32,000 nucleotides of DNA from contig OW818653.1 of assembly GCA_942492995.1 (NCBI GenBank), positions 1,680,001 through 1,712,000 on the forward strand, given 5' to 3'. A program made the translations under genes and the position numbers. The notes below the pieces were generated by a model. It made no database searches and was not told the DNA's origin. It saw only the letters and a list, made by a program, of their open reading frames with translations. Source of the stretch: an uncultured Erysipelotrichaceae bacterium. Lineage in GTDB: Bacteria > Bacillota_I > Bacilli_A > Erysipelotrichales > Erysipelotrichaceae. Below are positions 2,015-19,719 of the stretch, in pieces. The first letter of the stretch is position 1, and the number at the start of each line of letters is the position of its first letter.

Positions 2015-3073
2015 CTAAAATTGTAGGCTATTTCTATCTTTATCATGATTTGATACATGATTTGTAGAACTGTTATAGACAGATTCCATATATTTCAATG
2101 ATTTTTGAAGAACGCTAATAGATGCTGTATATTTATCAAAATCTATTGTAGAGTTTTTTATATCATTCGTTAAACTATCTAACTGAGCTCTGAACTTTTG
2201 AAGGACAGCTTGAGAAGTATAACTATCTTTCTGAGTGTTAATAATAATCTCTTTTATAACAGTTTCCAATTTTGCGGATTGTGTTAATGCGGATTGATTA
2301 GAAGACGCAATATGTGCGAAAGTTTCATCAATGGAAGTTCCTTCATTTAATAATCCTAACATTGCGCCACCACCTATAATAGCGAGAGGAGCATCGGGTT
2401 TACCTGTAGAACCAAAAGGTACATAACTACCACCAATGATTGTGAGTAATCGGTTGTAGTATGAATAGAAATATTTAACGACAAAGCCTATTCCAATTAG
2501 AATCATAATTTCTAGTACGGATAGAAAACCGATTGCGGTTAATGACACTGCAGCTAATATACATGCGATTGCGATAAGGTTCTTTTTGGTAGTTTCGTTC
2601 AATCTCGAGATAGAACTTGAATAAGCATTTCTATATTGATCAACTAATTCAACATCCATTATATTGTTTCTACGAACTAGATCTTTTATTACATTAGTTT
2701 GGTCGTTAAATTTTAATTTCATATAAACATTATCATTCTTTGAGTTTGCGCCTAATGGAGAATATGGCCAAAAATGAGTCATTTCAAACATTAATAGATA
2801 ATACCAAGTCATATTCAGTCCACTTGATTGTAAGTTTTTAATAGCTTCAACAATTCCATCTTCATCGAGTAAAACAACATTCTCATTTAGTGTAATAGTA
2901 GAAATATATTTTAAGTATGGTGTTTCCCAATCTTTTAGCCACATTTGTTTTGCGGATTTTTTACCACCTGATTGTATATCTTTATCTACTAATAGTCTTT
3001 CAATTGAAGCTTTAATAATTAATTGTTCACTATTTAATCCAAATATTGAGATAAGATCGCTACTATAATTCAT
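2015..3073 (-). CDS. Hypothetical membrane protein (352 aa): soluble N-terminal domain, central TM helices, helical C-terminal region
   Basis: Long ORF with GGAGG 6 nt upstream of the ATG. Hydrophobic stretch LIAIACILAAVSLTAIGFLSVLEIMILIGIGFVV. No family recognised. Confidence 0.6.
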   Translation of the reverse strand: MNYSSDLISIFGLNSEQLIIKASIERLLVDKDIQSGGKKSAKQMWLKDWETPYLKYISTITLNENVVLLDEDGIVEAIKNLQSSGLNMTWYYLLMFEMTHFWPYSPLGANSKNDNVYMKLKFNDQTNVIKDLVRRNNIMDVELVDQYRNAYSSSISRLNETTKKNLIAIACILAAVSLTAIGFLSVLEIMILIGIGFVVKYFYSYYNRLLTIIGGSYVPFGSTGKPDAPLAIIGGGAMLGLLNEGTSIDETFAHIASSNQSALTQSAKLETVIKEIIINTQKDSYTSQAVLQKFRAQLDSLTNDIKNSTIDFDKYTASISVLQKSLKYMESVYNSSTNHVSNHDKDRNSLQF

Positions 3074-3165: not shown

Positions 3166-3194
3166 GTAAACGATATAAAGTAAAATGGTATAAT
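3166..3194 (+). promoter_or_regulatory. Candidate extended -10 promoter for the five-gene operon
   Basis: TGgTATAAT at 3186-3194 with a weak -35 (gtaaac, 3166-3171) at 17-nt spacing. A 9-bp direct repeat taaagtaaa occurs at 3162-3170 and 3176-3184. Confidence 0.4.
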
Positions 3195-3235: not shown

Positions 3236-3550
3236 ATGAAAGAAACGATAAAAAGAGTTCTACAATTCACTAAAGAACGAGATTGGGATCAATTCCATCA
3301 TCCAGAGAATCTCGCAAAATCTATTTCTATAGAATCTGCAGAATTATTAGAATGTTTTCAATGGAGTTCTGATTATGATCATGACAAAGTTGTGGATGAA
3401 TTAGCAGATATACTTAATTACTGTATCTTGATGGCTGATAAACTTGATGTAGATATTGAAGAAATAATATTAAATAAAATAGAAAAGAATGAGATTAAAT
3501 ATCCAGTAGATAAAGCTAAAGGCAAAAGCGATAAATATACGAAATTATAG
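3236..3550 (+). CDS. MazG-like nucleotide pyrophosphohydrolase (small all-alpha NTP-PPase)
   Basis: RDWDQFHHPENLAKSISIESAELLECFQW followed by VDELADILNYCILMADKL. These are the ExxE / ExxD metal-binding helices characteristic of the small MazG-like family. Confidence 0.85.
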   Translation: MKETIKRVLQFTKERDWDQFHHPENLAKSISIESAELLECFQWSSDYDHDKVVDELADILNYCILMADKLDVDIEEIILNKIEKNEIKYPVDKAKGKSDKYTKL

Positions 3551-3559
3551 GGGTGGGGA

Positions 3560-5425
3560 ATGATAGTTTATTCGGATTCTAAGTACAATTTCATGGAAGT
3601 TGTTTTGGATGGGAAAATTGCGAATATAGTTGAACAAAGCTTGAGAGAAAGAATTGGTGTTCAAGTATCTTTAGCGGAATTTAATTCTTTCCAGAATTCT
3701 CTAGTTTTTGTGCGCATGATGTTAAGTCAAACAAAATTACATGATGATACTACTGTATCAATAGAATATAGAATTCCTAACACTTCAAAACGAATTGATT
3801 TTATTATCAGTGGATTAACTTTGGAGAATAAACCGAGTGCAGTTATTTTAGAGCTTAAGCAATGGCAACAGGTAGAAGCATTACCATTATCTGATGGACT
3901 TGTTAGAACAGTAGTTGGAGGAGGGAAGAGGATTGTTACTCATCCATCCTACCAAGCGTGGTCATATCAGAGTATGTTAAATGATTATAATGAAAATGTT
4001 TATAGAATCCCTATAGAACTATCCTCATGTGTTTTTATGCACAATTATCCAAGGGTAGACAATGTAGGGATTTTTGATTCTCATTATGAACCATATCTAA
4101 AAAAATCACCTGTTTTTGGACAATCTGATATAAGAAAATTGAGTCAATACATAGATCAAAGAATAGAATTTCCTGATTATAAAAAGACAATTGAATTAAT
4201 AGAATTCGGGAAAATAAAACCATCTAAATCACTTCAAGATTCATTAGCAAATATGCTTGAAGGAAATACTGAGTTTATCTTAATCGATGAACAGAAAGTA
4301 ATCTTCGAACAAGCGATATCTCTTGCTAGACTTTCACAAAAGGATAGAAAGAAAAGAGTCATGATTATAGAAGGTGGACCAGGTACTGGGAAGTCGGTTG
4401 TCGCGATTAATCTAATGGTTCACTTAACTTCAGCATTTGGTATGCATTGTCGATATGTAACTAAGAATTCTGCTCCTCGACAAGTTTATAAATACTATTT
4501 AAGAAAGAATGGTCAAAAAGGTAAGAATATTGATTATCTATTTACTGGTTCTGGTAGTTTTACAGATACTCCAACTGATTACTATCCAGCATTGATAGTA
4601 GATGAAGCTCATCGGTTAAATGAAATGTCTGGAATGTTTGAAAACTTAGGCGAGAACCAAGTTAAAGAAATTATAAATTCATCAGTCTTCTCGATATTCT
4701 TTATCGATCATGATCAAAAAATACATATTAAAGATATTGGAAGCACAGAAGAAATTAAGCGTTGGGCTAAATACCTTAATGCGGAAGTATTTGAGAATAA
4801 GCTAGAGTCACAATTTAGATGTAATGGATCGTCTGGTTACTTGAATTGGTTAGATAATTTATTAGAGATTCGACCAACCGCAAATGAAGTATTTGAGTTT
4901 GATTATGACTTTAAAGTATTTACTGATCTCAATGAAATGCGTAAAGCGATAGAAGAGAAGAATGTAGAAAGAAATAAGTCTAGATTATTAGCAGGATATT
5001 GTTGGAATTGGGTATCTAAGAATAATAAAGACGCATACGATATCGTATTTGATGAGTTCGATTTCAAAATGAAATGGAATTTAAGTAATGAGATTTATGC
5101 AATATCCGACTCATCAATTACTGAAGTTGGCTGTATACATACTTCTCAAGGATTAGAATTTGATTATGTTGGAGTAATTATTGGAGAGGATATGTCATAT
5201 AAAGATGGACATATTGTGACAGATCCATTAAAGAGAGCATCAACTGATCAATCATTAAAAGGTATTAAGGGAATGTTAAAGACAGATCCTGAAAAAGCAT
5301 ATAAGATTGCGGATGAAATTATAAAGAATACATATAGAACTTTAATGACTAGGGGAATGAAGGGTTGTTATGTATATTGTTTAGATAAAAAATTAGAAGA
5401 AATTCTATATTCAGAAACATCATAA
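3560..5425 (+). CDS. DUF2075 domain protein: N-terminal PD-(D/E)xK-like nuclease motif plus Schlafen/Nhi-like SF1-type ATPase
   Basis: Motifs seen: EYRIPNTSKRIDFIISG...VILELKQW (restriction-endonuclease-like), Walker A GGPGTGKS (nt 4373-4396), Walker B LIVDEAHRL, and FRCNGSSGYLNWLDNLL typical of DUF2075. RBS GGGGTGGGG upstream. Confidence 0.85.
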   Translation: MIVYSDSKYNFMEVVLDGKIANIVEQSLRERIGVQVSLAEFNSFQNSLVFVRMMLSQTKLHDDTTVSIEYRIPNTSKRIDFIISGLTLENKPSAVILELKQWQQVEALPLSDGLVRTVVGGGKRIVTHPSYQAWSYQSMLNDYNENVYRIPIELSSCVFMHNYPRVDNVGIFDSHYEPYLKKSPVFGQSDIRKLSQYIDQRIEFPDYKKTIELIEFGKIKPSKSLQDSLANMLEGNTEFILIDEQKVIFEQAISLARLSQKDRKKRVMIIEGGPGTGKSVVAINLMVHLTSAFGMHCRYVTKNSAPRQVYKYYLRKNGQKGKNIDYLFTGSGSFTDTPTDYYPALIVDEAHRLNEMSGMFENLGENQVKEIINSSVFSIFFIDHDQKIHIKDIGSTEEIKRWAKYLNAEVFENKLESQFRCNGSSGYLNWLDNLLEIRPTANEVFEFDYDFKVFTDLNEMRKAIEEKNVERNKSRLLAGYCWNWVSKNNKDAYDIVFDEFDFKMKWNLSNEIYAISDSSITEVGCIHTSQGLEFDYVGVIIGEDMSYKDGHIVTDPLKRASTDQSLKGIKGMLKTDPEKAYKIADEIIKNTYRTLMTRGMKGCYVYCLDKKLEEILYSETS

Positions 5426-5440
5426 AATAGGGGGATAATT

Positions 5441-6070
5441 ATGGGGTCATCAACAAGAAACACTTTTCCACGTTTTAAAAAGAGATTAGAAGAAACTATT
5501 GAACAAGAAGATGAATTAAATATAATTGAAATTTTAAGAAAATATTATTTTAAAAAAAATGGGGTTAGTAATTTACAGAAAAATATAATAACAACATTAA
5601 AATCAAATGAATATATTAATGTCGTTAATGGAATAATTAAGGTTTCAAAAGTTGTAAGTAGTGGACTATTATCGGGATTAGGGTTACCAGGGAATTTTAA
5701 TAGTTTAAATAATTATGAGAAAGTAGATATAATTTCAGATATTATTGGATTAAAAAGTGAACTATTATCTAATTCTTTAAACAAAACATTTGATGAGATT
5801 AATATTGATAATATTATTAATTTCGTAAAAACATTCACTGGGAATATTCTTAAATCAATTATAGAAACATTTTGCATAGAAGATATACTAGAAGTTGTAG
5901 GTGAAGATGCTAAAGAAAAAGCTGAAAATGAAATAAATGATTTCGTTAATGAAACACTTTCAAACATTCCATTTGATTTAGAATATGATGAGAATGATGA
6001 TGCAATAAATTTAACAGAAAAATTGGATAATATGTTTAGAAATATCTATCTAAATCTAAAAGGCAAATAA
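5441..6070 (+). CDS. Hypothetical protein (209 aa), N-terminus MGSSTRN, acidic C-terminus; no recognisable domain
   Basis: ORF with RBS GGGGGA 6 nt upstream. It sits 15 nt after the upstream gene and 5 nt before the next one. Very AT-rich and N/I/K-rich. Confidence 0.6.
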   Translation: MGSSTRNTFPRFKKRLEETIEQEDELNIIEILRKYYFKKNGVSNLQKNIITTLKSNEYINVVNGIIKVSKVVSSGLLSGLGLPGNFNSLNNYEKVDIISDIIGLKSELLSNSLNKTFDEINIDNIINFVKTFTGNILKSIIETFCIEDILEVVGEDAKEKAENEINDFVNETLSNIPFDLEYDENDDAINLTEKLDNMFRNIYLNLKGK

Positions 6071-6075
6071 TCTAT

Positions 6076-7338
6076 ATGTCTAATCAATTACCAACAACTT
6101 TTTATAGTGAACACTTCCAATCAACTCAAGTTAGTTTGTTTGATATAGAATTTAACGATACATTATCATTAGACATTTTTGATATCCTTGCTGGGATCGT
6201 ATATAGAGATTTTGATATGCAAAGAAATGAATATTTAATAAATAAAAATATAGTTTGTATTGATGTAAATAACTTAGAAATTCTTTTGCCATATGTTCCT
6301 ATTTTTGAAGAATTAGCTAGTTATATGACTGGTGAATTATGGAGAGTTGAATTAAAAGAAACTCAAATCTCAAAAAAAATATTTTTTGAGAATGAAAAAT
6401 TAAGCTGGGAAATAGACTCAGTTTGTTTGTTTTCAGGGGGGTTAGATTCTCTAGCGGGAGTTTGTGAAGAGTCCAGATTGAAATTAAAAACTTTGTTGAT
6501 AAATTATCAAACAAATGGTCATGAAATGAAAGTCGCAAAGAGCACTTTTGATGGTTACTTGGTAAAGAATTTCAAGCTTATACAATTTAAGAAAGCAAAA
6601 TATACAAAATATAATCATCATACTCAAAGAACTAGAAGCCTAATATTTATCGGTTGTGCATTTGTGTATTCAAGATTTCTTAATGTTAAAGATATTAAAA
6701 TTTATGAAAATGGTATTATGAGTTTCAACCCAAATGTAGCAAATATTAGGAAAACTTCAAAAACAACGCATCCGAAAACGATTTATTTACTAAATAGAAT
6801 AATGAAAATTTTTAATATTAGAGTATTAAATCCTTTTATTTATATGACAAAAGGTGAAGTAATATCAAGAATTGATGAACAGCTTTTGCCAAATATTAAA
6901 AATACAGTCACTTGTTCTAGAAATCAAAGAATAAAGTATCACTCAGATCGAGGGAATAAATATCAATGTGGTTACTGTATTTCATGTATTTTAAGACAAA
7001 TTGGTATGACCAAAATCCAATTAAATTTTATAGACTCTGAGTATATTACAGAATTGAATGAATATATATTTCCAGAATCTCGATGGATAAACGACGTAAC
7101 ATTGAAGAATATTTATTCTAAAAATCAGTTATATAGACTTAATTATAAAAACTCAACTATTAGATATTTTAGATTTTTAAAAATAGAGTTTGAAAAAGGT
7201 AAATTATTTGAATTACTTAATATTAGAAGTATGTACTTTAATGAAAGCAATTATCAAGAATTAATAATTGGACTATACATGCGCTTTATTGATGAATTAA
7301 ATTATTATTTAGAGGTTATAAATGAAAAAAGAGAATGA
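6076..7338 (+). CDS. QueC-like PP-loop ATPase (7-cyano-7-deazaguanine synthase family) with N- and C-terminal extensions
   Basis: PP-loop VCLFSGGLDSLAG (SGGLDS at nt 6433-6450). NPFIYMTKGEVI resembles the QueC PL..K.EI motif. Zn-type cysteine cluster C..(x)..CGYCISCILRQ (nt 6967-6987). Length is 420 aa versus roughly 220-230 aa for canonical QueC. Confidence 0.8.
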   Translation: MSNQLPTTFYSEHFQSTQVSLFDIEFNDTLSLDIFDILAGIVYRDFDMQRNEYLINKNIVCIDVNNLEILLPYVPIFEELASYMTGELWRVELKETQISKKIFFENEKLSWEIDSVCLFSGGLDSLAGVCEESRLKLKTLLINYQTNGHEMKVAKSTFDGYLVKNFKLIQFKKAKYTKYNHHTQRTRSLIFIGCAFVYSRFLNVKDIKIYENGIMSFNPNVANIRKTSKTTHPKTIYLLNRIMKIFNIRVLNPFIYMTKGEVISRIDEQLLPNIKNTVTCSRNQRIKYHSDRGNKYQCGYCISCILRQIGMTKIQLNFIDSEYITELNEYIFPESRWINDVTLKNIYSKNQLYRLNYKNSTIRYFRFLKIEFEKGKLFELLNIRSMYFNESNYQELIIGLYMRFIDELNYYLEVINEKRE

Positions 7339-7948
7339 ACAACTGAACATTAATAGAAAAAAATTCTATTGTCTTGACAGTAAAAGTAATAATGCATTAA
7401 ATTGTTTTAGTAGAATTAACTCGGATATAAGCCAACTTGTGAACTTAATAAAATTGAATGTAGATATTGATGAATATTCAATGTCAAAGACACTAATGCT
7501 TATAAAATATCTTTTATTGACACTAAAAGAAGCGTTGAAGTTCATATCGAATGTTATCGAAAATGAAAATTTAAAATTATTGATTCCAAATGAAGCAGAT
7601 GAAATTATAAATGAATTATCAAGTGAAATTCTCAATCCTAAATTAGCGGAAGATACATTTAATGCAAGAATTTTGACAAAAGTAAGAGATGATATTGCAC
7701 ATTATTCTATAGATAATAAGCAAGAGCGCAAAAACACTTTAATTTTGACGGAGTTAATCAATCAAGAAAAGAATATGATATTTACTCAAGCCAATAAGCA
7801 AATTGATTTTGAATTATTTACTGATATTTTATTCATAAACAATATTAGTGAAACTGAAAGAAGAGAGATGCTTTTATTAGCTGATAAGATAAGATTATTA
7901 TCAAAACAGGTTTTGATGTATCATATTAAAAATAATATGAAGGTTTGA
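7322..7948 (+). CDS. Hypothetical protein (208 aa), probably all-alpha, with HEPN-like Rx4H motif (RDDIAH)
   Basis: RBS AGAGG 6 nt upstream of the ATG. The start overlaps the QueC-like gene by 17 nt. Motif KVRDDIAHY lies at nt 7685-7702. No family recognised with certainty. Confidence 0.55.
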   Translation: MKKENEQLNINRKKFYCLDSKSNNALNCFSRINSDISQLVNLIKLNVDIDEYSMSKTLMLIKYLLLTLKEALKFISNVIENENLKLLIPNEADEIINELSSEILNPKLAEDTFNARILTKVRDDIAHYSIDNKQERKNTLILTELINQEKNMIFTQANKQIDFELFTDILFINNISETERREMLLLADKIRLLSKQVLMYHIKNNMKV

Positions 7949-7953
7949 GTTAT

Positions 7954-7979
7954 GGAGAGATTTTATTCTCTCCTTTTTT
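7954..7979 (+). terminator. Rho-independent terminator ending the five-gene operon
   Basis: Stem ggagaga (7954-7960) / tctctcc (7967-7973) followed by TTTTTT (7974-7979). Confidence 0.65.
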
Positions 7980-8081
7980 AATTGGAGAATTAATAATTAA
8001 TCTAATCTTTGCCACAATAGTTGAAGAATAATGGTGTAGATGTTGCTATTCTTAAATTGTAGACTATAGGTGAAGGTAAAT

Positions 8082-13940: not shown

Positions 13941-16900
13941 TTACTCTGTTTCTATCACTTTCTGGTATCTAAAACTATAGATTCCAGTACGTATATGATG
14001 ATTCGGATAAACAAGTTGAATCGCTGTACGATAATCATTTAACTGTGAAGAATAAACTTCGATGAGTTCTTGTTCACTCAAATGTCTATCGGTTTTAAAG
14101 TCTACGCAATAAACTGTTTTCTCATCATTCGCTAATATATCCATAATCCCTCTGACAATCTCGTTGTTCGATTGATATACAAAAGGGAATTCCTTATAAC
14201 AGTTAATTGTTTTCATCTTGGTATACCAATCACTGTGATAGAAGGATAATAAGGCTTCTATTTCATCTTCTGTACTATTAGGATCTAATTCTAAGATCTT
14301 TTCTTTTGACCAATCATTAAGTGGTAATTGTTCGATAAGACGATGTAAACGCGTACCACGCTCTTTACCATCATTGAAGTAATCTAAATCAAGATTAGTC
14401 GTAGATGTTTTAAATTCATGGGCTGATGGACGTCTGAATACGATTGAATCTTGATGAGTATTGATAAACGTAAAAGGAGGAGTAGGTGGAGGTGTAGGCA
14501 TTGTGTGAGATTCAATGGTTGATGGATCAATTTCTTTGATCTTAAAAATATCATAAATCTCTCTACCTGCCGCATGCGTTAAGAATGTATAGCCACGATT
14601 ACCTAAGATAAGATCTAAGTTCAACTGTGATTTCTCTAAGTTCTTATGATTCTTATCCACAATAATCAGTTTCTTCTCTGCCCGTGTCAATGCGACATAC
14701 CAGACTCTGAGTGCTTCTTCTTTCTCTTCACGTAGAATCTTGTGTTTAATCCCTAAACTCATTGGATTATCCCGTTTATAGCGTTCTGGTAAGAGAATGG
14801 TATTCATCGCAATCCCAATATCATTATCATAATGAATTAAACTCGAACTATTATGATTCATAAATTGTTTCGTACCTAAGACAAATACAACAGGCCATTC
14901 TAAGCCTTTGGATTGGTGAATGGTTAATACCTTAACCACATCATCTTCTTGAGAAACAGGAATCGCCTCAGAAGTCTTCTCATCTTGAATCGCTTCTACC
15001 ATTTGAATAAACTCAATTAAACTAAAGTTCTCTTCATCCAAACTAATCGCTTTAACTCGTAATAAGTCAAGATTCGTACGTTGTTGGGTATCGATATGAT
15101 GGGTATAATAACCATTAAATTCATAAAGGATATTTAAGAACTCACTGAGTCGTTTATAGTTGGCTTGTCTAACTAATTCCATTAAAGATGCATATTCATT
15201 TGGATAGTTTAATCTGAAACCATCTGTTAGTGAATTTTGACTAACAATTCGTAACTGTGCTAATTTATTCTCATCAAACTCAAAGAACGATGATAATAAC
15301 ACTCCCACAAGCGATAAATCATCTCTTGGATCTAAACAGAATCGTAGAACTTGAAGTACATCTTGAACTGATGACGACAAATAGAAACCAGCTTTCACAT
15401 CAATAAAATTAGGAATGTGATACGCATCAAATGCTTTCTTTAACTCTAACTTTGTACGATGTGATTTAACCAATACAACATAGTCTTTCCAATGTGGATA
15501 GATATTTTCTTTACGCATCTTAATAATCGTTTGTGCAATATGATTCGCCTTAATACGATCTAACTTAATCGTTTCTTCATCACTCTCTTCTAATTCATTA
15601 ATCAAATGGAGTTCAATTGTTTCTCCACCCAATTGCGAATCAACCCCAATCTTCACCGTATCTTGAGGTGAATACGAAGAATCTAAGCCTTGGATGTTCA
15701 TCAAATTACTGAAGAGTTGATTGTTAAATTCTACGATTGATTCTTTCGATCTATAGTTATTACTAAGATATAAGGTTAAATCGCTCGGATTTGTGGATTG
15801 AATTAAACCTTTCATTAATTGTGGACGTGCATTTCTAAACCGATAAATGGACTGTTTCACATCCCCAACTCTAAACACATTATTCCCTCGACTAATACAT
15901 TCAACTAATTCATCCTGTACTTCATTAGAATCCTGGAACTCATCAACTAAGATATCTTTTATTTGATTCCGTAATTGATCAGACACATCAAAATCCGGAT
16001 GTTTAAGTATCTGTAATGCCATCTTTTCCATATCTGAAAAGTCTAAGACCTGTGCTTCTTCTTTAATGGATTGATAAATAAGATTGAAATGTTCTACACA
16101 ATCAATAAGTGCAGAAATCGGTTCTTTTAGATATTCAATATCCCGTAAATAATCTTCTTCCTTGAAGTAATGTGTCACAACACTCTTCACCGTATCATAG
16201 AATTGATCACGCATATTCTTCGTATTCTCTTCTAGTCCACGTAATGGTTTAGCTGTTAAACTACCAAGGATGATCAACGCATGATGGAAGGTATGGTAAT
16301 TGAATGTGTCAAGCGCAAGCGTAGCTTGTACGATAGAATCTTCAAGGTGTTTGATCTGAAACTTTGACTCATCTTGAAGTTCATCAAGAGTAAGAGATAA
16401 CTTAAACTGATTCAATGAATCTGTAAGAGATGTCATATCATCTCTTAACACTTGGAAGAAAGCAGATCTATATGGTTCATCTAATTCAGATAAATGATTG
16501 TATCTTCGATACGATGATTTAATCTGATTCAACCATTGTGTAGGATCAATCTTAGCTTCTAACTTAGAACTTAAATCAAGAATTGTTTCTCTAAGAAATG
16601 TATCTTCTTCAGGTCTATTGTGTAGTATTTGAACTAGATTCAAGAATGCAGGATGTGCTTTCTTATACGCTTCATCCAATACAATATCCAAGGCTTGCGA
16701 TTGATAAATCTTCGAACTCGCTTCATCACAAATCGAATTCGCACGTTTCTGACTAATCCCTAATACATACGCATAATCCTTTACTAAACTTAAACAAAAC
16801 GAGTGAATAGTCGAAATACGAGCAGATGCGAGTAAGGCAATCTGTCGATAAATACGTTCATCATGATTGCGTTGGTACTCTTCTTGAAGTGCTTTAGCCA

Positions 16901-17099
16901 AACGTTTCTTCATCTCAGTCGCAGCCAAATCCGTAAACGTCATCGCTAAGATCTCATCCACATTCACGCCATCCTCTAAAATACGTTTCATCAAACGCGC
17001 AATTAAAACCGTTGTTTTACCCGCTCCTGCTGAAGCGGACAGAATAATATTCTTGCCTACGGTATTAATCGCAGCTAATTGTTCAGGACTCCGTTTCAT
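13941..17099 (-). CDS. addA: ATP-dependent helicase/nuclease subunit A (AddA/RexA)
   Basis: UvrD-type motifs SASAGAGKTT and ILVDEFQDSN, plus the C-terminal RecB-nuclease motif GIMDIL...VYCVDFKTD. The ATG at 17099 has AAGGAG 6 nt upstream; the ORF-track start at 17102 is a GTG. Confidence 0.9.
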   Translation of the reverse strand: MKRSPEQLAAINTVGKNIILSASAGAGKTTVLIARLMKRILEDGVNVDEILAMTFTDLAATEMKKRLAKALQEEYQRNHDERIYRQIALLASARISTIHSFCLSLVKDYAYVLGISQKRANSICDEASSKIYQSQALDIVLDEAYKKAHPAFLNLVQILHNRPEEDTFLRETILDLSSKLEAKIDPTQWLNQIKSSYRRYNHLSELDEPYRSAFFQVLRDDMTSLTDSLNQFKLSLTLDELQDESKFQIKHLEDSIVQATLALDTFNYHTFHHALIILGSLTAKPLRGLEENTKNMRDQFYDTVKSVVTHYFKEEDYLRDIEYLKEPISALIDCVEHFNLIYQSIKEEAQVLDFSDMEKMALQILKHPDFDVSDQLRNQIKDILVDEFQDSNEVQDELVECISRGNNVFRVGDVKQSIYRFRNARPQLMKGLIQSTNPSDLTLYLSNNYRSKESIVEFNNQLFSNLMNIQGLDSSYSPQDTVKIGVDSQLGGETIELHLINELEESDEETIKLDRIKANHIAQTIIKMRKENIYPHWKDYVVLVKSHRTKLELKKAFDAYHIPNFIDVKAGFYLSSSVQDVLQVLRFCLDPRDDLSLVGVLLSSFFEFDENKLAQLRIVSQNSLTDGFRLNYPNEYASLMELVRQANYKRLSEFLNILYEFNGYYTHHIDTQQRTNLDLLRVKAISLDEENFSLIEFIQMVEAIQDEKTSEAIPVSQEDDVVKVLTIHQSKGLEWPVVFVLGTKQFMNHNSSSLIHYDNDIGIAMNTILLPERYKRDNPMSLGIKHKILREEKEEALRVWYVALTRAEKKLIIVDKNHKNLEKSQLNLDLILGNRGYTFLTHAAGREIYDIFKIKEIDPSTIESHTMPTPPPTPPFTFINTHQDSIVFRRPSAHEFKTSTTNLDLDYFNDGKERGTRLHRLIEQLPLNDWSKEKILELDPNSTEDEIEALLSFYHSDWYTKMKTINCYKEFPFVYQSNNEIVRGIMDILANDEKTVYCVDFKTDRHLSEQELIEVYSSQLNDYRTAIQLVYPNHHIRTGIYSFRYQKVIETE

Positions 17100-19719
17100 C
17101 ACTTGCTCCTTCGACTAAACTCTTAATACTCGTACGATTACGTTCTTCCTTCTCTTCGCCCCTAAACTGACAAATAGCCTTGTAGTCGCAATATTTACAT
17201 CCATCTTTTACCACATCTTTATCAATGACACCGTCTTCAAGTGAATGATAGAGAAGCGTATATAAATCACGAATCGCTTGATTCAATAGTTCTATATTGT
17301 ACTGTTTAGACCGTGTAACTGTTCCGCCTTTTAACTTCAATCCTTTAATGTATTTCGCAGATGTATCTTGATTCGCCTCATCATCCAAGGTATATCCAAC
17401 CCATTGACGTAACTTGAGATAATCGTCTTCATAATCTTTATTCGTTAACTCAACCATACCTTTTGTCTTCGCATAGGTATATGGTTCGATTGAAACAGAA
17501 CCTGGTTGACCAAACGACGCATAGTAAATTCCTGACGCAATCTTATCAAACAATTCTTTACTGAATAATGCATACGTTGGTAACTGTAATTTATTTCCAC
17601 TTAATACAGATTTTTCACTCAGTGATTTCGCACTACTCTTATAATCCACAATCCTAACGTATTCATCTCGTACATCAACACGATCAATAAATCCCTTTAG
17701 ATGGACTTGTTTATCTTGATCAATCGTAATGGATTGATTAAACTCTACTTCAACTTGATAGGGCGCATATTCTGTATTCTGTTCTAACGCCGCAAAATTA
17801 TTTAAACTCTCAAGAATCAACTGTTTAGCCCGTTCTTGAATGGAAAGGATACGTGAAATTTGTTTAGGATACAACTTCATTAAGTCATTAAACATTGGGT
17901 CAATCAATTCATTTATATGACGTTTCCCAAAATTCGGATAATCCTTACCAGCCTTATGTACACTCTGTTCAAACACCGCATGCGAAATGGTACCCATTAA
18001 TGAATTATCAATCGTAAAAGGTTTTTGGATATATAGTTTTAATCCTGATTTTAAATAATATTGATACGGACAACGGAAGAAACTCTCAAACGAAGAGACA
18101 CTTCCATACAATCCATCCTGTTTAAAAAAGAGTTCTTTCGCAATGGTTGGATCTAATTTAAATACACGCTCATGTTTAACTTCTGCTTCAATCAATTCTA
18201 ACGGTGTAAACTTAGGTCCATTATGTCGTTTCAAGAAATCTTCAATCTCAAACGATAATGAAGCACCTTTGCCCTCATAATTCCCTACTGAATAGGTAAA
18301 ACACGTATTCTTAGATAACTTAAAAATCGTCTCTAACTGAGTCATATGCCAAAGATAACGTTCACTCGAAGTATCACTGATACATTGATTAAAATAAGTC
18401 TCATCAAAGAATCCACTGTGAACAGGATATTGCGGATAATTCTTCGATGAACATCCCAACACAAACATCTGATCCATAAATGGAATCATCGCATTTGTAA
18501 GTGACACAATCTGTATGCCTTGTTCAGTTGATTCAGATTCTGATAATTGTTCCAACTGATGAATTAAATAGGGAATTGATTGAGGACTAGTTAAGTAAGG
18601 AAGAGAAGTTTGAAGACATTGTCTAATCTGACTAATCGCAGAAGGATTATGCGAAAGTTGAGTGAATAAATTAAATAATCGTTTAATGGTTTCAACTAAA
18701 TCAGAACTATACTCAAAGTTAATAAGCTCAAGATACAACGGTCTACACTCATCACTCTTACGCTCTATCTCCAATAAATGTTTAATACTCCGTTTATCCC
18801 AAATATCATTCTCATATAAGGTATCGTTTAAATGCGTAAATGTTTGATTAAAATCACTGAGATTTGGAGACGCAATCTCAATGTATTGTAAGAGCTGTAA
18901 GGTATGTGAACTATGAATCAAACCACTCTTGATAATCTTGACTAGCTTATCCATACTCGGATTCAACACAAACGCTAAACAATCCACAAACTGTCTAGCT
19001 TCAATGAGGGTTATTTTCTTCTGATAGGTATACGGTATTTTAAGTTGCGATAAATAATGCGTTAAGGGTTCAATCGTTTCAGGATCTAAACATACAATCA
19101 CTGTTTTATCATACGCAATCTTTGATTGAGCAATCTTCTGTACAACGCCATACGCTTCCATCCGCGGATTCTTCGCATAGTACGCCTCAAAGGTTGTTTG
19201 AACTTCATGAATCTCTAAAAACTTTGCGCCTTTATCCATCAATTGATCTAAACGTTTCTTTGACGCATAGGATTGATAAGACGGTATTATCTGAATCGAT
19301 TGATCAAATTGTTTCAGATTAAATTGGGTATAACTCAATGCCTTCGGATGTTTATCGGGATTTAAATACGCTAATAAACGTTTCAATTCCTTATCCTTAT
19401 TAGACATATTCGGTAAATCATCTAAGTGTATATTCTCTTCTGCCATCTCATCCATAAACGCTATTAATTCATCTATCGCACTTGGATAATCCAAGCTTTT
19501 TAATAAAATCGGAAATTCACGACGATGGGATAGGATAACTTCTACACATTGCCAATAATATTCCAACGAACTAGGTAAGACTTGGTCTAATTTCACAAAG
19601 TTATCCCAGGATAAGAATTCAGTCCCAAACAGAATAGGATTTTCATTCATAAAATGCTTAATCACCGCTTTTTGAGCGTGTTTTTGTGTGATAACTGTCG
19701 TTATTATGTGCTTGTTCAT
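17083..19719 (-). CDS. addB: ATP-dependent helicase/nuclease subunit B (AddB/RexB type)
   Basis: C-terminal nuclease motif GFIDRVDV...VRIVDYKSS and Fe-S cysteines (FFRCPYQYY, CKYCDYKAIC). The 3' end overlaps the addA start. The N-terminus lacks a Walker A motif, as in RexB-type subunits. Confidence 0.85.
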   Translation of the reverse strand: MNKHIITTVITQKHAQKAVIKHFMNENPILFGTEFLSWDNFVKLDQVLPSSLEYYWQCVEVILSHRREFPILLKSLDYPSAIDELIAFMDEMAEENIHLDDLPNMSNKDKELKRLLAYLNPDKHPKALSYTQFNLKQFDQSIQIIPSYQSYASKKRLDQLMDKGAKFLEIHEVQTTFEAYYAKNPRMEAYGVVQKIAQSKIAYDKTVIVCLDPETIEPLTHYLSQLKIPYTYQKKITLIEARQFVDCLAFVLNPSMDKLVKIIKSGLIHSSHTLQLLQYIEIASPNLSDFNQTFTHLNDTLYENDIWDKRSIKHLLEIERKSDECRPLYLELINFEYSSDLVETIKRLFNLFTQLSHNPSAISQIRQCLQTSLPYLTSPQSIPYLIHQLEQLSESESTEQGIQIVSLTNAMIPFMDQMFVLGCSSKNYPQYPVHSGFFDETYFNQCISDTSSERYLWHMTQLETIFKLSKNTCFTYSVGNYEGKGASLSFEIEDFLKRHNGPKFTPLELIEAEVKHERVFKLDPTIAKELFFKQDGLYGSVSSFESFFRCPYQYYLKSGLKLYIQKPFTIDNSLMGTISHAVFEQSVHKAGKDYPNFGKRHINELIDPMFNDLMKLYPKQISRILSIQERAKQLILESLNNFAALEQNTEYAPYQVEVEFNQSITIDQDKQVHLKGFIDRVDVRDEYVRIVDYKSSAKSLSEKSVLSGNKLQLPTYALFSKELFDKIASGIYYASFGQPGSVSIEPYTYAKTKGMVELTNKDYEDDYLKLRQWVGYTLDDEANQDTSAKYIKGLKLKGGTVTRSKQYNIELLNQAIRDLYTLLYHSLEDGVIDKDVVKDGCKYCDYKAICQFRGEEKEERNRTSIKSLVEGASDETES

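Follow-up and report, generated by a model that had tools for sequence, protein, structure and literature searches.

QatABCD is reportedly an anti-phage system, described by Gao and colleagues in 2020. Structures of QatBC have been published, and QatB carries a conserved MGTS N-terminus whose Gly2 is essential and slots into QatC's active site (PMC13279940, PMC13376578, PMC13639016). For some phages QatB and QatC are enough to give protection (PMC13279940, PMC13434339), and the pair turns the modification of a protein N-terminus into phage defence (PMC13279940, PMC13376578). In the cyclic oligonucleotide-based antiphage signalling system (CBASS) of type IV, the QueC-family enzyme Cap9 acts on the N-terminal glycine (MGxS) of its partner CdnD (cited in PMC13279940), and the defence proteins of the Nhi and Nhi-like group join an N-terminal nuclease to DUF2075 (bioRxiv 10.1101/776245, 10.1101/2022.05.11.491447). 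Here we compare with these systems a five-gene locus from an uncultured Erysipelotrichaceae bacterium, located in a 32,000-nt stretch of contig OW818653.1 (assembly GCA_942492995.1, positions 1,680,001 to 1,712,000 of the forward strand) that we call the window.

Gene content and modularity of the locus

Five open reading frames (ORFs) lie on the same strand at spacings of 9, 15, 5 and -17 nt (Table 1). They encode a MazG-like protein (ORF1), a DUF2075 nuclease-helicase (ORF2), a QatB-like protein (ORF3), a QatC-like protein (ORF4) and a small helical protein with an Rx4H motif (ORF5). An initial annotation had placed these ORFs at the same positions, and its domain assignments (MazG-like, DUF2075, QueC-like) are borne out by a Pfam scan; the motifs that it cited are present (RIDFII/ELKQW, GGPGTGKS and DEAH in ORF2; SGGLDS and CGYCISC in ORF4). 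Of the two proteins that it left without an obvious family, ORF5 is still unannotated, but ORF3 turns out to be QatB-like. It was also right that no known-system model covers all five genes (in PADLOC, just QatC scores well). Its central proposal, one new five-gene system, is supported only in part: the five-gene order recurs in L001 alone (comparison loci carry L numbers), which comes from a close relative, occupies the same chromosomal site and is 79% identical in nucleotide sequence, and conserved co-occurrence is essentially lacking. The finding is real and defence-related, but the five genes are no system of a categorically new kind. We instead read the locus, with a probability of roughly 0.7, as a defence-island segment in which two autonomous phage-defence cassettes stand side by side: a MazG–DUF2075 pair, and a three-gene module with a Qat-like core and a swapped effector, without QatA and QatD.

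The resemblance of the second module to QatABCD lies in its core. ORF4 is a PP-loop enzyme of the QatC type, extended at both its N- and its C-terminus and carrying an SGGxDS motif, a zinc-binding Cys4 site and a Thr/THP loop. Its gene is directly preceded by, and tightly coupled to, one whose helical product, about 210 aa long, begins with MG[ST]S and has a predicted QatB fold, and the setting is again a defence island. The locus differs from QatABCD in that QatA (a KAP NTPase) and QatD (a TatD nuclease) are missing, the third gene encodes an unannotated Rx4H protein, and ORF2 is a superfamily 1 (SF1) DUF2075 helicase rather than a KAP NTPase. QatB and QatC alone suffice against some phages, and a locus without QatA and QatD therefore stays of the Qat kind. 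The absences named in the initial annotation were upheld by the Pfam scan, in which TatD (PF01026) has no match at the locus and CD-NTase and Cap10 domains have none in the five ORFs and two upstream genes; the same seven proteins have no match to KAP_NTPase (PF07693), queD/queE or tRNA-guanine transglycosylase (TGT)-like domains, and no tgt or dpdA gene is found nearby. The comparison with type IV CBASS is similar. The presumed chemistry, a QueC-family enzyme acting on an N-terminal glycine of its partner, is shared with Cap9–CdnD, but a CD-NTase, Cap10 or cyclic-nucleotide effector is not, and ORF4 has about 420 residues where Cap9 has about 185.

The two modules occur independently of each other. 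Homologues of ORF3, ORF4 and ORF5 form a conserved three-gene cassette in 10 clusters of QatC-like proteins, most of which have no MazG or DUF2075 gene within 4-10 kb. From the other side, a metagenome scan with a DUF2075 alignment recovered at least 574 relatives, and in the best 80 loci, which we analysed, homologues of ORF3, ORF4 or ORF5 were never found within 8 kb (0/80). The presence of the pair is also polymorphic among close relatives. ORF5 homologues that are identical, and whose QatB–QatC-like and Fic flanks have the same layout, are accompanied by MazG–DUF2075 in L138 and not in L136 or L137; DUF2075 is present in L035 and absent from L038, despite an identity of at least 80% between their QatC-like proteins; and L019 and L041 differ in the same way. 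Locus L131 gives a further comparison. Its DUF2075 protein falls in the same 90%-identity cluster as ORF2, and its MazG–DUF2075 pair occupies the same chromosomal site as in the window, with a DUF975 gene upstream. DNA identity to the window is 92% over MazG–DUF2075, homology ends at about position 5386, some 40 nt before the ORF2 stop codon, and in place of ORF3–ORF5 there are genes for an OLD-family ATPase/TOPRIM protein and a UvrD-like helicase (Gabija-like; L131 9927-12523). The site common to the window and L131 is a hot spot for the exchange of defence cassettes.

Several observations nonetheless weigh against two fully independent modules. MazG–DUF2075 lies within about 4 kb of QatB–QatC-like genes in 6 of 29 clusters, spanning all three partner types described below, and abuts them directly in three arrangements (the window and L001; L005-8; L035), a proximity above what is expected of unrelated genes. 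We attribute this residual proximity to shared residence in defence islands. It could also be taken to mean that the five genes are one integrated system, in which the DUF2075 nuclease-helicase would act as a QatA-like DNA-binding NTPase and MazG would modulate nucleotide pools that gate the effector. The tight spacing, the one promoter-like box and the one terminator fit such a system, as does the retention of the five-gene order in L001. A role for MazG is conceivable, given that nucleoside triphosphates (NTPs) reportedly inhibit canonical QatD (PMC13434339). MazG–DUF2075 also recurs beside QatB–QatC-like genes in other arrangements and in lineages that are independent: in L005-8 the two are convergent and abut, in L035 the pair lies directly 5' of QatB–QatC-like genes and TatD, and in L014, L138 and L019 it lies within 3-4 kb. 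The distribution described above, in which each module is usually found without the other and L131 keeps MazG–DUF2075 with a different downstream cassette, argues against integration. Where the modules are co-located, Fic, Mrr or a DUF6414 plus AAA ATPase pair often intervenes, and in L035 the DUF2075 gene is split into two ORFs. Finally, DUF2075 proteins are about 52% identical across these loci and QatC-like proteins about 35%; the two genes have different histories. A single five-gene system thus strikes us as improbable, and we would give no better odds to an arrangement in which MazG–DUF2075 is a facultative accessory of QatB–QatC-type cores, the five genes work as a composite whole, and ORF3, once modified at its N-terminus, releases ORF5 as a new HEPN-like RNase. 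If it were true, the nuclease-helicase would be a nucleic-acid-sensing stand-in for QatA, and MazG would link changes in nucleotide pools to activation.

ORF3 and ORF4, a QatB–QatC-like pair

The Qat-like core of the second module depends on the identity of ORF3 and ORF4. ORF4 matches the Pfam QueC family (PF06508) at 3e-10, a match confined to residues 184-314. It also matches the NCBIfam QatC model (NF041925) at 5.9e-43 (147 bits), the PADLOC QatC model at 1.9e-37 and the QatC chain 9zee_B in the PDB at 5e-18, the last with TTHP and CGxCxxC aligned. The motifs that define QatC relative to QueC and Cap9 are RxRxxxF/Y, ExG, T..T-H-P and Px4TK (PMC13329287, PMC13279940). In ORF4 we find SGGLDS at 120-125, RTRSLIF at 185-191, ENG at 211-213, TSKTTHP at 227-233 and PFIYMTK at 253-259, with a zinc site at C280/C298/C301/C304, and the active-site motif columns are invariant in an alignment of QatC-like proteins (alignment A1). 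ORF4 thereby carries the QatC-specific THP/Thr signature and not the Tyr/Asp pair that recognises 7-carboxy-7-deazaguanine (CDG) in Cap9 and QueC (PMC13279940, PMC13329287).

The PP-loop and zinc-cysteine motifs are common to QueC, and together with the Pfam match they could suggest that ORF4 is a metabolic QueC-type enzyme, active in preQ0/7-deazaguanine synthesis or DNA modification and unrelated to protein modification or defence. We regard this as very improbable. The QueC equivalog model TIGR00364 gives ORF4 19.7 bits where its cutoff is 150, and the canonical YxQxHxxE, VPxRN and YPDC motifs are replaced by the QatC set (motifs per PMC13329287). Neither queD, queE, folE nor tgt/dpdA is found nearby among the window ORFs in the Pfam scan, the 420-aa length with N- and C-terminal extensions is typical of QatC, and the obligate partner of ORF4 starts with MG[ST]S. 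On the TIGR00364 score, the lack of any queD/queE, CD-NTase or TGT-like domain match among the seven proteins scanned, and the QatC-type active-site loop, we rejected assignments to metabolic QueC, Dpd and type IV CBASS.

That partner is encoded by ORF3, which begins with MGSS, the glycine motif of QatB. An iterated ORF3 profile matches the gene immediately 5' of the QatC-like gene in 44 of 51 loci, TatD-linked ones included, and nearly all proteins encoded directly 5' of QatC-like genes start with MG[ST]S. In an AlphaFold2 model of ORF3 (predicted local distance difference test, pLDDT, 84), the top PDB fold match found with Foldseek is QatB, 9y01_A, with a probability of 0.98 and a template modelling (TM) score of 0.55; all other matches have TM scores of at most 0.25. 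The first helix of the model begins at about residue 10, leaving a predicted short N-terminal tail, which differs from the 30-90 disordered residues reported in many QatB proteins. By analogy with QatB, Gly2 of ORF3 is presumed to be the acceptor of a QatC-catalysed modification.

Not all of the comparisons favour this assignment. The 147 bits of ORF4 are about half of the NCBIfam QatC equivalog cutoff of 280 bits. The same holds for the other QatC-like proteins from these loci that we scored against NF041925, six in all (four linked to TatD, one to DUF4238 and one to ORF5): at 154-187 bits they too are below the cutoff. The Foldseek E-value of the ORF3–QatB match is just 0.25, and at the sequence level ORF3 matches neither the QatB models nor QatB in the PDB. 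More broadly, when ORF3 and ORF5 were searched against PDB sequences, both as single sequences and as profiles, nothing meaningful was returned, and neither protein has a family in Pfam, NCBIfam, PADLOC or PHROGs. Taking motifs, profiles and gene order together, our assignment is that ORF3 and ORF4 are a QatB–QatC-type pair, of which ORF4 is a divergent QatC-like member.

ORF5 and the partners of QatB–QatC-like cores

We clustered the QatC-like proteins at 80% identity, which gave 35 clusters, 29 of them with a QatB-like neighbour. A member of the ORF5 family is encoded directly downstream of the QatB–QatC-like pair in 10 clusters, and TatD, confirmed as PF01026, holds the same position in about 10 others. 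In 6 clusters the pair is instead preceded by a divergently transcribed gene for a protein of about 350 aa, labelled DUF4238 by precomputed Pfam, and about 3 clusters have none of the three partners. Partner type (ORF5 family, DUF4238 or TatD) tracks clades of the QatC-like tree, and because of this ORF5 is, on the sequence evidence, a co-evolving partner of the QatB–QatC-like core. In published censuses of Qat, no genes other than A, B, C and D appear in the combinations listed (PMC13434339), and the published neighbours of QatC are KAP NTPase and TatD alone (PMC13329287, supplement); the ORF5 and DUF4238 variants therefore appear to be undescribed in the searched literature, where QatC and HEPN occur together in incidental co-mentions only. 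The neighbours of the cassettes are of defence type, including restriction genes, OLD/AAA_21, Fic, Mrr, BrxL, nSTAND and similar.

The ORF5 family comprises 52 clusters among 5.8e9 proteins, none of them annotated, and in every locus that we read its members are encoded directly 3' of the QatC-like gene, from which they are spaced by -17 to +4 nt. The R122/H127 pair named in the initial annotation is present, and we assign it, by way of correction, to ORF5, as part of the motif R122-x4-H127-Y128 (RDDIAHY). The Arg, His and Tyr are invariant within the family (alignments A3, A4). An exhaustive profile search added distant relatives of 210-245 aa, and across 40 sequences of 12-26% identity these three residues are the sole invariant ones besides Met1 (A7). 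The AlphaFold2 model of ORF5 is a helical bundle (pLDDT 85). An Rx4H dyad in an all-helical protein is a hallmark of HEPN RNases. Consistent with this, the marginal Pfam matches of the ORF5 family include Ribonuc_2-5A, HEPN_AbiU2 and HEPN_Cthe2314 (three HEPN-clan families), and HEPN toxins are among the weak fold matches of the model. One distant member of the superfamily (L132 1352-2279; 223 aa, Rx4HY kept) overlaps the end of a MazE/AbrB-type antitoxin gene by 8 nt, the gene layout of a toxin-antitoxin pair; other distant relatives stand alone, in one case at the edge of a prophage. ORF5 thus shares with the HEPN RNase toxins and abortive-infection (Abi) proteins, such as HEPN/MNT toxins and AbiU2, a small all-helical build, an invariant Rx4H and, among its distant relatives, toxin-like settings. 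It differs from them in the Tyr after the His and in an HL[RK]EA motif specific to the ORF5 family.

We therefore put the odds slightly better than even that ORF5 is a HEPN-like effector, an assignment that is putative and drawn from sequence and modelling, with supporting lines that are not statistically decisive. Against it, neither profile nor fold comparisons give ORF5 a significant match to any HEPN family, and the Rx4H segment is modelled as a loop, with moderate confidence. Pfam scans of 36 and of 40 family members gave no significant family, and Foldseek searches of the model against the PDB and the viral BFVD gave no significant match. These points, and above all the lack of a significant nuclease-family match, would also suit a regulatory, scaffolding or immunity subunit without nuclease activity, for instance a sensor of a phage protein, with ORF3 as the effector. 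QatB plus QatC suffice without a third protein against some phages (PMC13279940), and a protein of the ORF3 type has been proposed as the effector in QatBC-only defence. We think such a subunit unlikely, if somewhat less so than a single five-gene system. That R122, H127 and Y128 alone are invariant in a very divergent superfamily is the pattern typical of a catalytic HEPN dyad. The marginal matches repeatedly include families of the HEPN clan, one distant relative has a MazE antitoxin as its partner, and the same slot is held by the nuclease TatD in sister clades.

By analogy with the Qat and Cap9 literature, the Qat-type module (5441-7948), a QatB–QatC core with a different third gene, could work as follows. 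Met1 of ORF3 would be removed, as in QatBC and Cap9–CdnD. The PP-loop of ORF4, with ATP, would adenylate a carboxylated small molecule, possibly CDG or another ligand as for QatC, and transfer it to the alpha-amine of Gly2 of ORF3, so that the ORF3–ORF4 complex would act as a switch. ORF5, translationally coupled to ORF4, would stand where QatD, a TatD nuclease, stands in Qat, and would act as effector or as an extender of range, with RNase activity the likeliest. That a QatB–QatC core occurs with any of at least three partners unrelated to one another (TatD, a divergently transcribed DUF4238 protein and the Rx4H ORF5 family), or with none, argues for QatB–QatC as a portable switch with exchangeable effectors, and such small three-gene systems from Bacillota would let the link between switch and effector be dissected.

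With the DUF4238-type protein, Qat may have a partner of a third kind. It adjoins the QatB–QatC-like pair on the 5' side in L005-L008, L012, L013, L017, L021-L023, L027 and L028 (for example L005 6214-7269, - strand), and its six clusters have neither ORF5 nor TatD; a separate Pfam scan of one member returned no match to support the precomputed label. Other genes recur near the cassettes. A Fic-domain gene (about 280 aa) lies directly 3' of the ORF5 homologue in L014, L016 and L136-L139 (for example L136 6660-7505) and nearby upstream in L002/L003 and L026; it could be a stand-alone defence gene (compare SoFic) or an accessory. A DUF6414 gene paired with one for an AAA_2/ClpX-like ATPase stands between MazG–DUF2075 and the QatB–QatC–ORF5-like cassette in L019 (6381-8400) and 3' of that cassette in L041 (about 15800-17750), and looks like a mobile candidate defence pair. 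Longer QueC-like proteins of 453-640 aa are encoded in L043, L044 and L046-L049, in hosts from the Alphaproteobacteria, Rubrobacteraceae, Planctomycetaceae, Ignavibacteria and Terracidiphilus and in an actinobacterium. In four of these six (L043, L044, L047, L048) the long QueC-like gene is preceded by one for a protein of cluster c23, which is unrelated and has about 270-300 aa. One sampled c23 member has an internal MGHI that is a possible true start, and this may be another protein-modification pair of the QueC family.

The MazG–DUF2075 pair and the layout of the locus

ORF1 matches the MazG-like family PF12643 in Pfam at 3e-20 (72.7 bits, cutoff 27) and the PHROG pyrophosphatase family at 8e-15, and it has the acidic motifs ESAELLE (aa 33-39) and DELAD (aa 54-58). 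On this basis we class it as a predicted MazG-like all-alpha NTP pyrophosphohydrolase and partner of ORF2. ORF2 has an N-terminal PD-(D/E)xK-like domain (D80, E98-L-K100) and a C-terminal SF1 helicase that matches SLFN-g3_helicase/DUF2075 (PF09848) at 7e-100 over aa 265-609, with Walker A at 272-279 and DEAH at 348-351. D80, E98-x-K100, Walker A and DEAH are invariant among its homologues (A6). This order, with the PD-(D/E)xK-type nuclease motif ahead of the DUF2075 SF1 helicase, is also that of Nhi, which the initial annotation had put in the DUF2075 type, as the two preprints cited above confirm. ORF2 differs from Nhi in that its PADLOC match is weak and partial (3.3e-11, aa 237-471 only, the helicase core); matches to AbiO and PDC-S41 are similarly weak and partial. 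It also differs in having a conserved MazG-like partner, which is undescribed for Nhi. In the 80 DUF2075 loci, a MazG-like gene is adjacent in 68 (85%), mostly immediately 5' on the same strand and sometimes 3', and in about 15 of the 80 there is a gap between the two genes. Their neighbours are mainly of defence type: AAA_21/AAA_15, Fic, ResIII, Mrr, DUF3427, HNH, nSTAND3, WYL and DndB. A literature search for DUF2075 with MazG, and for Nhi with MazG, gave no match, and the pair is thus common and undescribed in the searched literature. With its many metagenomic relatives and defence neighbourhood, it is a cheap candidate for testing. In the first module (3236-5425), the PD-(D/E)xK nuclease joined to the SF1 DUF2075 helicase would degrade invading nucleic acid, and MazG would sanitise or deplete nucleotides or regulate ORF2. 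The defence phenotype of both modules, like their biochemistry, we infer from the comparisons made here.

In some loci an ORF for a 126-aa cysteine-rich protein sits between MazG and DUF2075. The example in L005 (11191-11571, - strand) has a zinc-ribbon-like CxxC...CxxC arrangement and no Pfam match.

Table 1. Features of the five-gene locus, in coordinates of the window.
Feature	Position	Strand	Description
ORF1	3236-3550	+	104 aa, MazG-like
ORF2	3560-5425	+	621 aa, nuclease-helicase (DUF2075)
ORF3	5441-6070	+	209 aa, QatB-like helical protein
ORF4	6076-7338	+	420 aa, QatC-like PP-loop ATP pyrophosphatase
ORF5	7322-7948	+	208 aa, small helical protein, HEPN-like putative effector
Extended -10 promoter-like box TGGTATAAT	3186-3194	+	read directly; 42 nt 5' of ORF1; putative function
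Intrinsic-terminator-like hairpin GGAGAGA-loop-TCTCTCC, then T-run	7954-7979	+	terminator scan and reading
Module boundary	5386-5440	n/a	end of DNA homology to L131; GC fall

Although we read the modules as independent, here they lie 15 nt apart, and a single transcript, running from one promoter to one terminator, probably covers both. The single downstream terminator proposed in the initial annotation is present as a GC-rich hairpin and T-run, and the start of ORF5 overlaps the end of ORF4 by 17 nt. Its candidate promoter, TGGTATAAT, is also present, but in shuffles it is indistinguishable from background: the AT-rich region holds 43 promoter-like matches against 37.8 in shuffled sequence, which is no enrichment. 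The box is absent from the list of a simple sigma-70 scan because its -35 element is weak. A promoter there driving the ORFs is plausible, and with promoter-like matches at the level of shuffles the single-transcript picture is therefore plausible rather than proven. An internal terminator between ORF2 and ORF3 was ruled out, the 15-nt gap being too small, and an internal promoter there was set aside, since the matches at 5382-5439 are at background level. A further terminator-like site inside ORF4 (6401-6425) is at chance level.

GC content falls from 0.30-0.32 at 3-5 kb (MazG–DUF2075) to 0.24-0.26 at 5-8 kb (ORF3–ORF5), and the flanking phosphotransferase system (PTS) genes in the window are at 0.31-0.37. 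The low GC over window positions 5001-8000 fits a separate, recent gain of the Qat-like cassette. On the other side of the locus, a 352-aa ORF (window 2015-3073, - strand) stands between the DUF975 gene and MazG; it has no family match and weak coiled-coil-type matches alone. This ORF is absent at the same site in L131 and L001, and it is therefore an extra insertion in a variable island.

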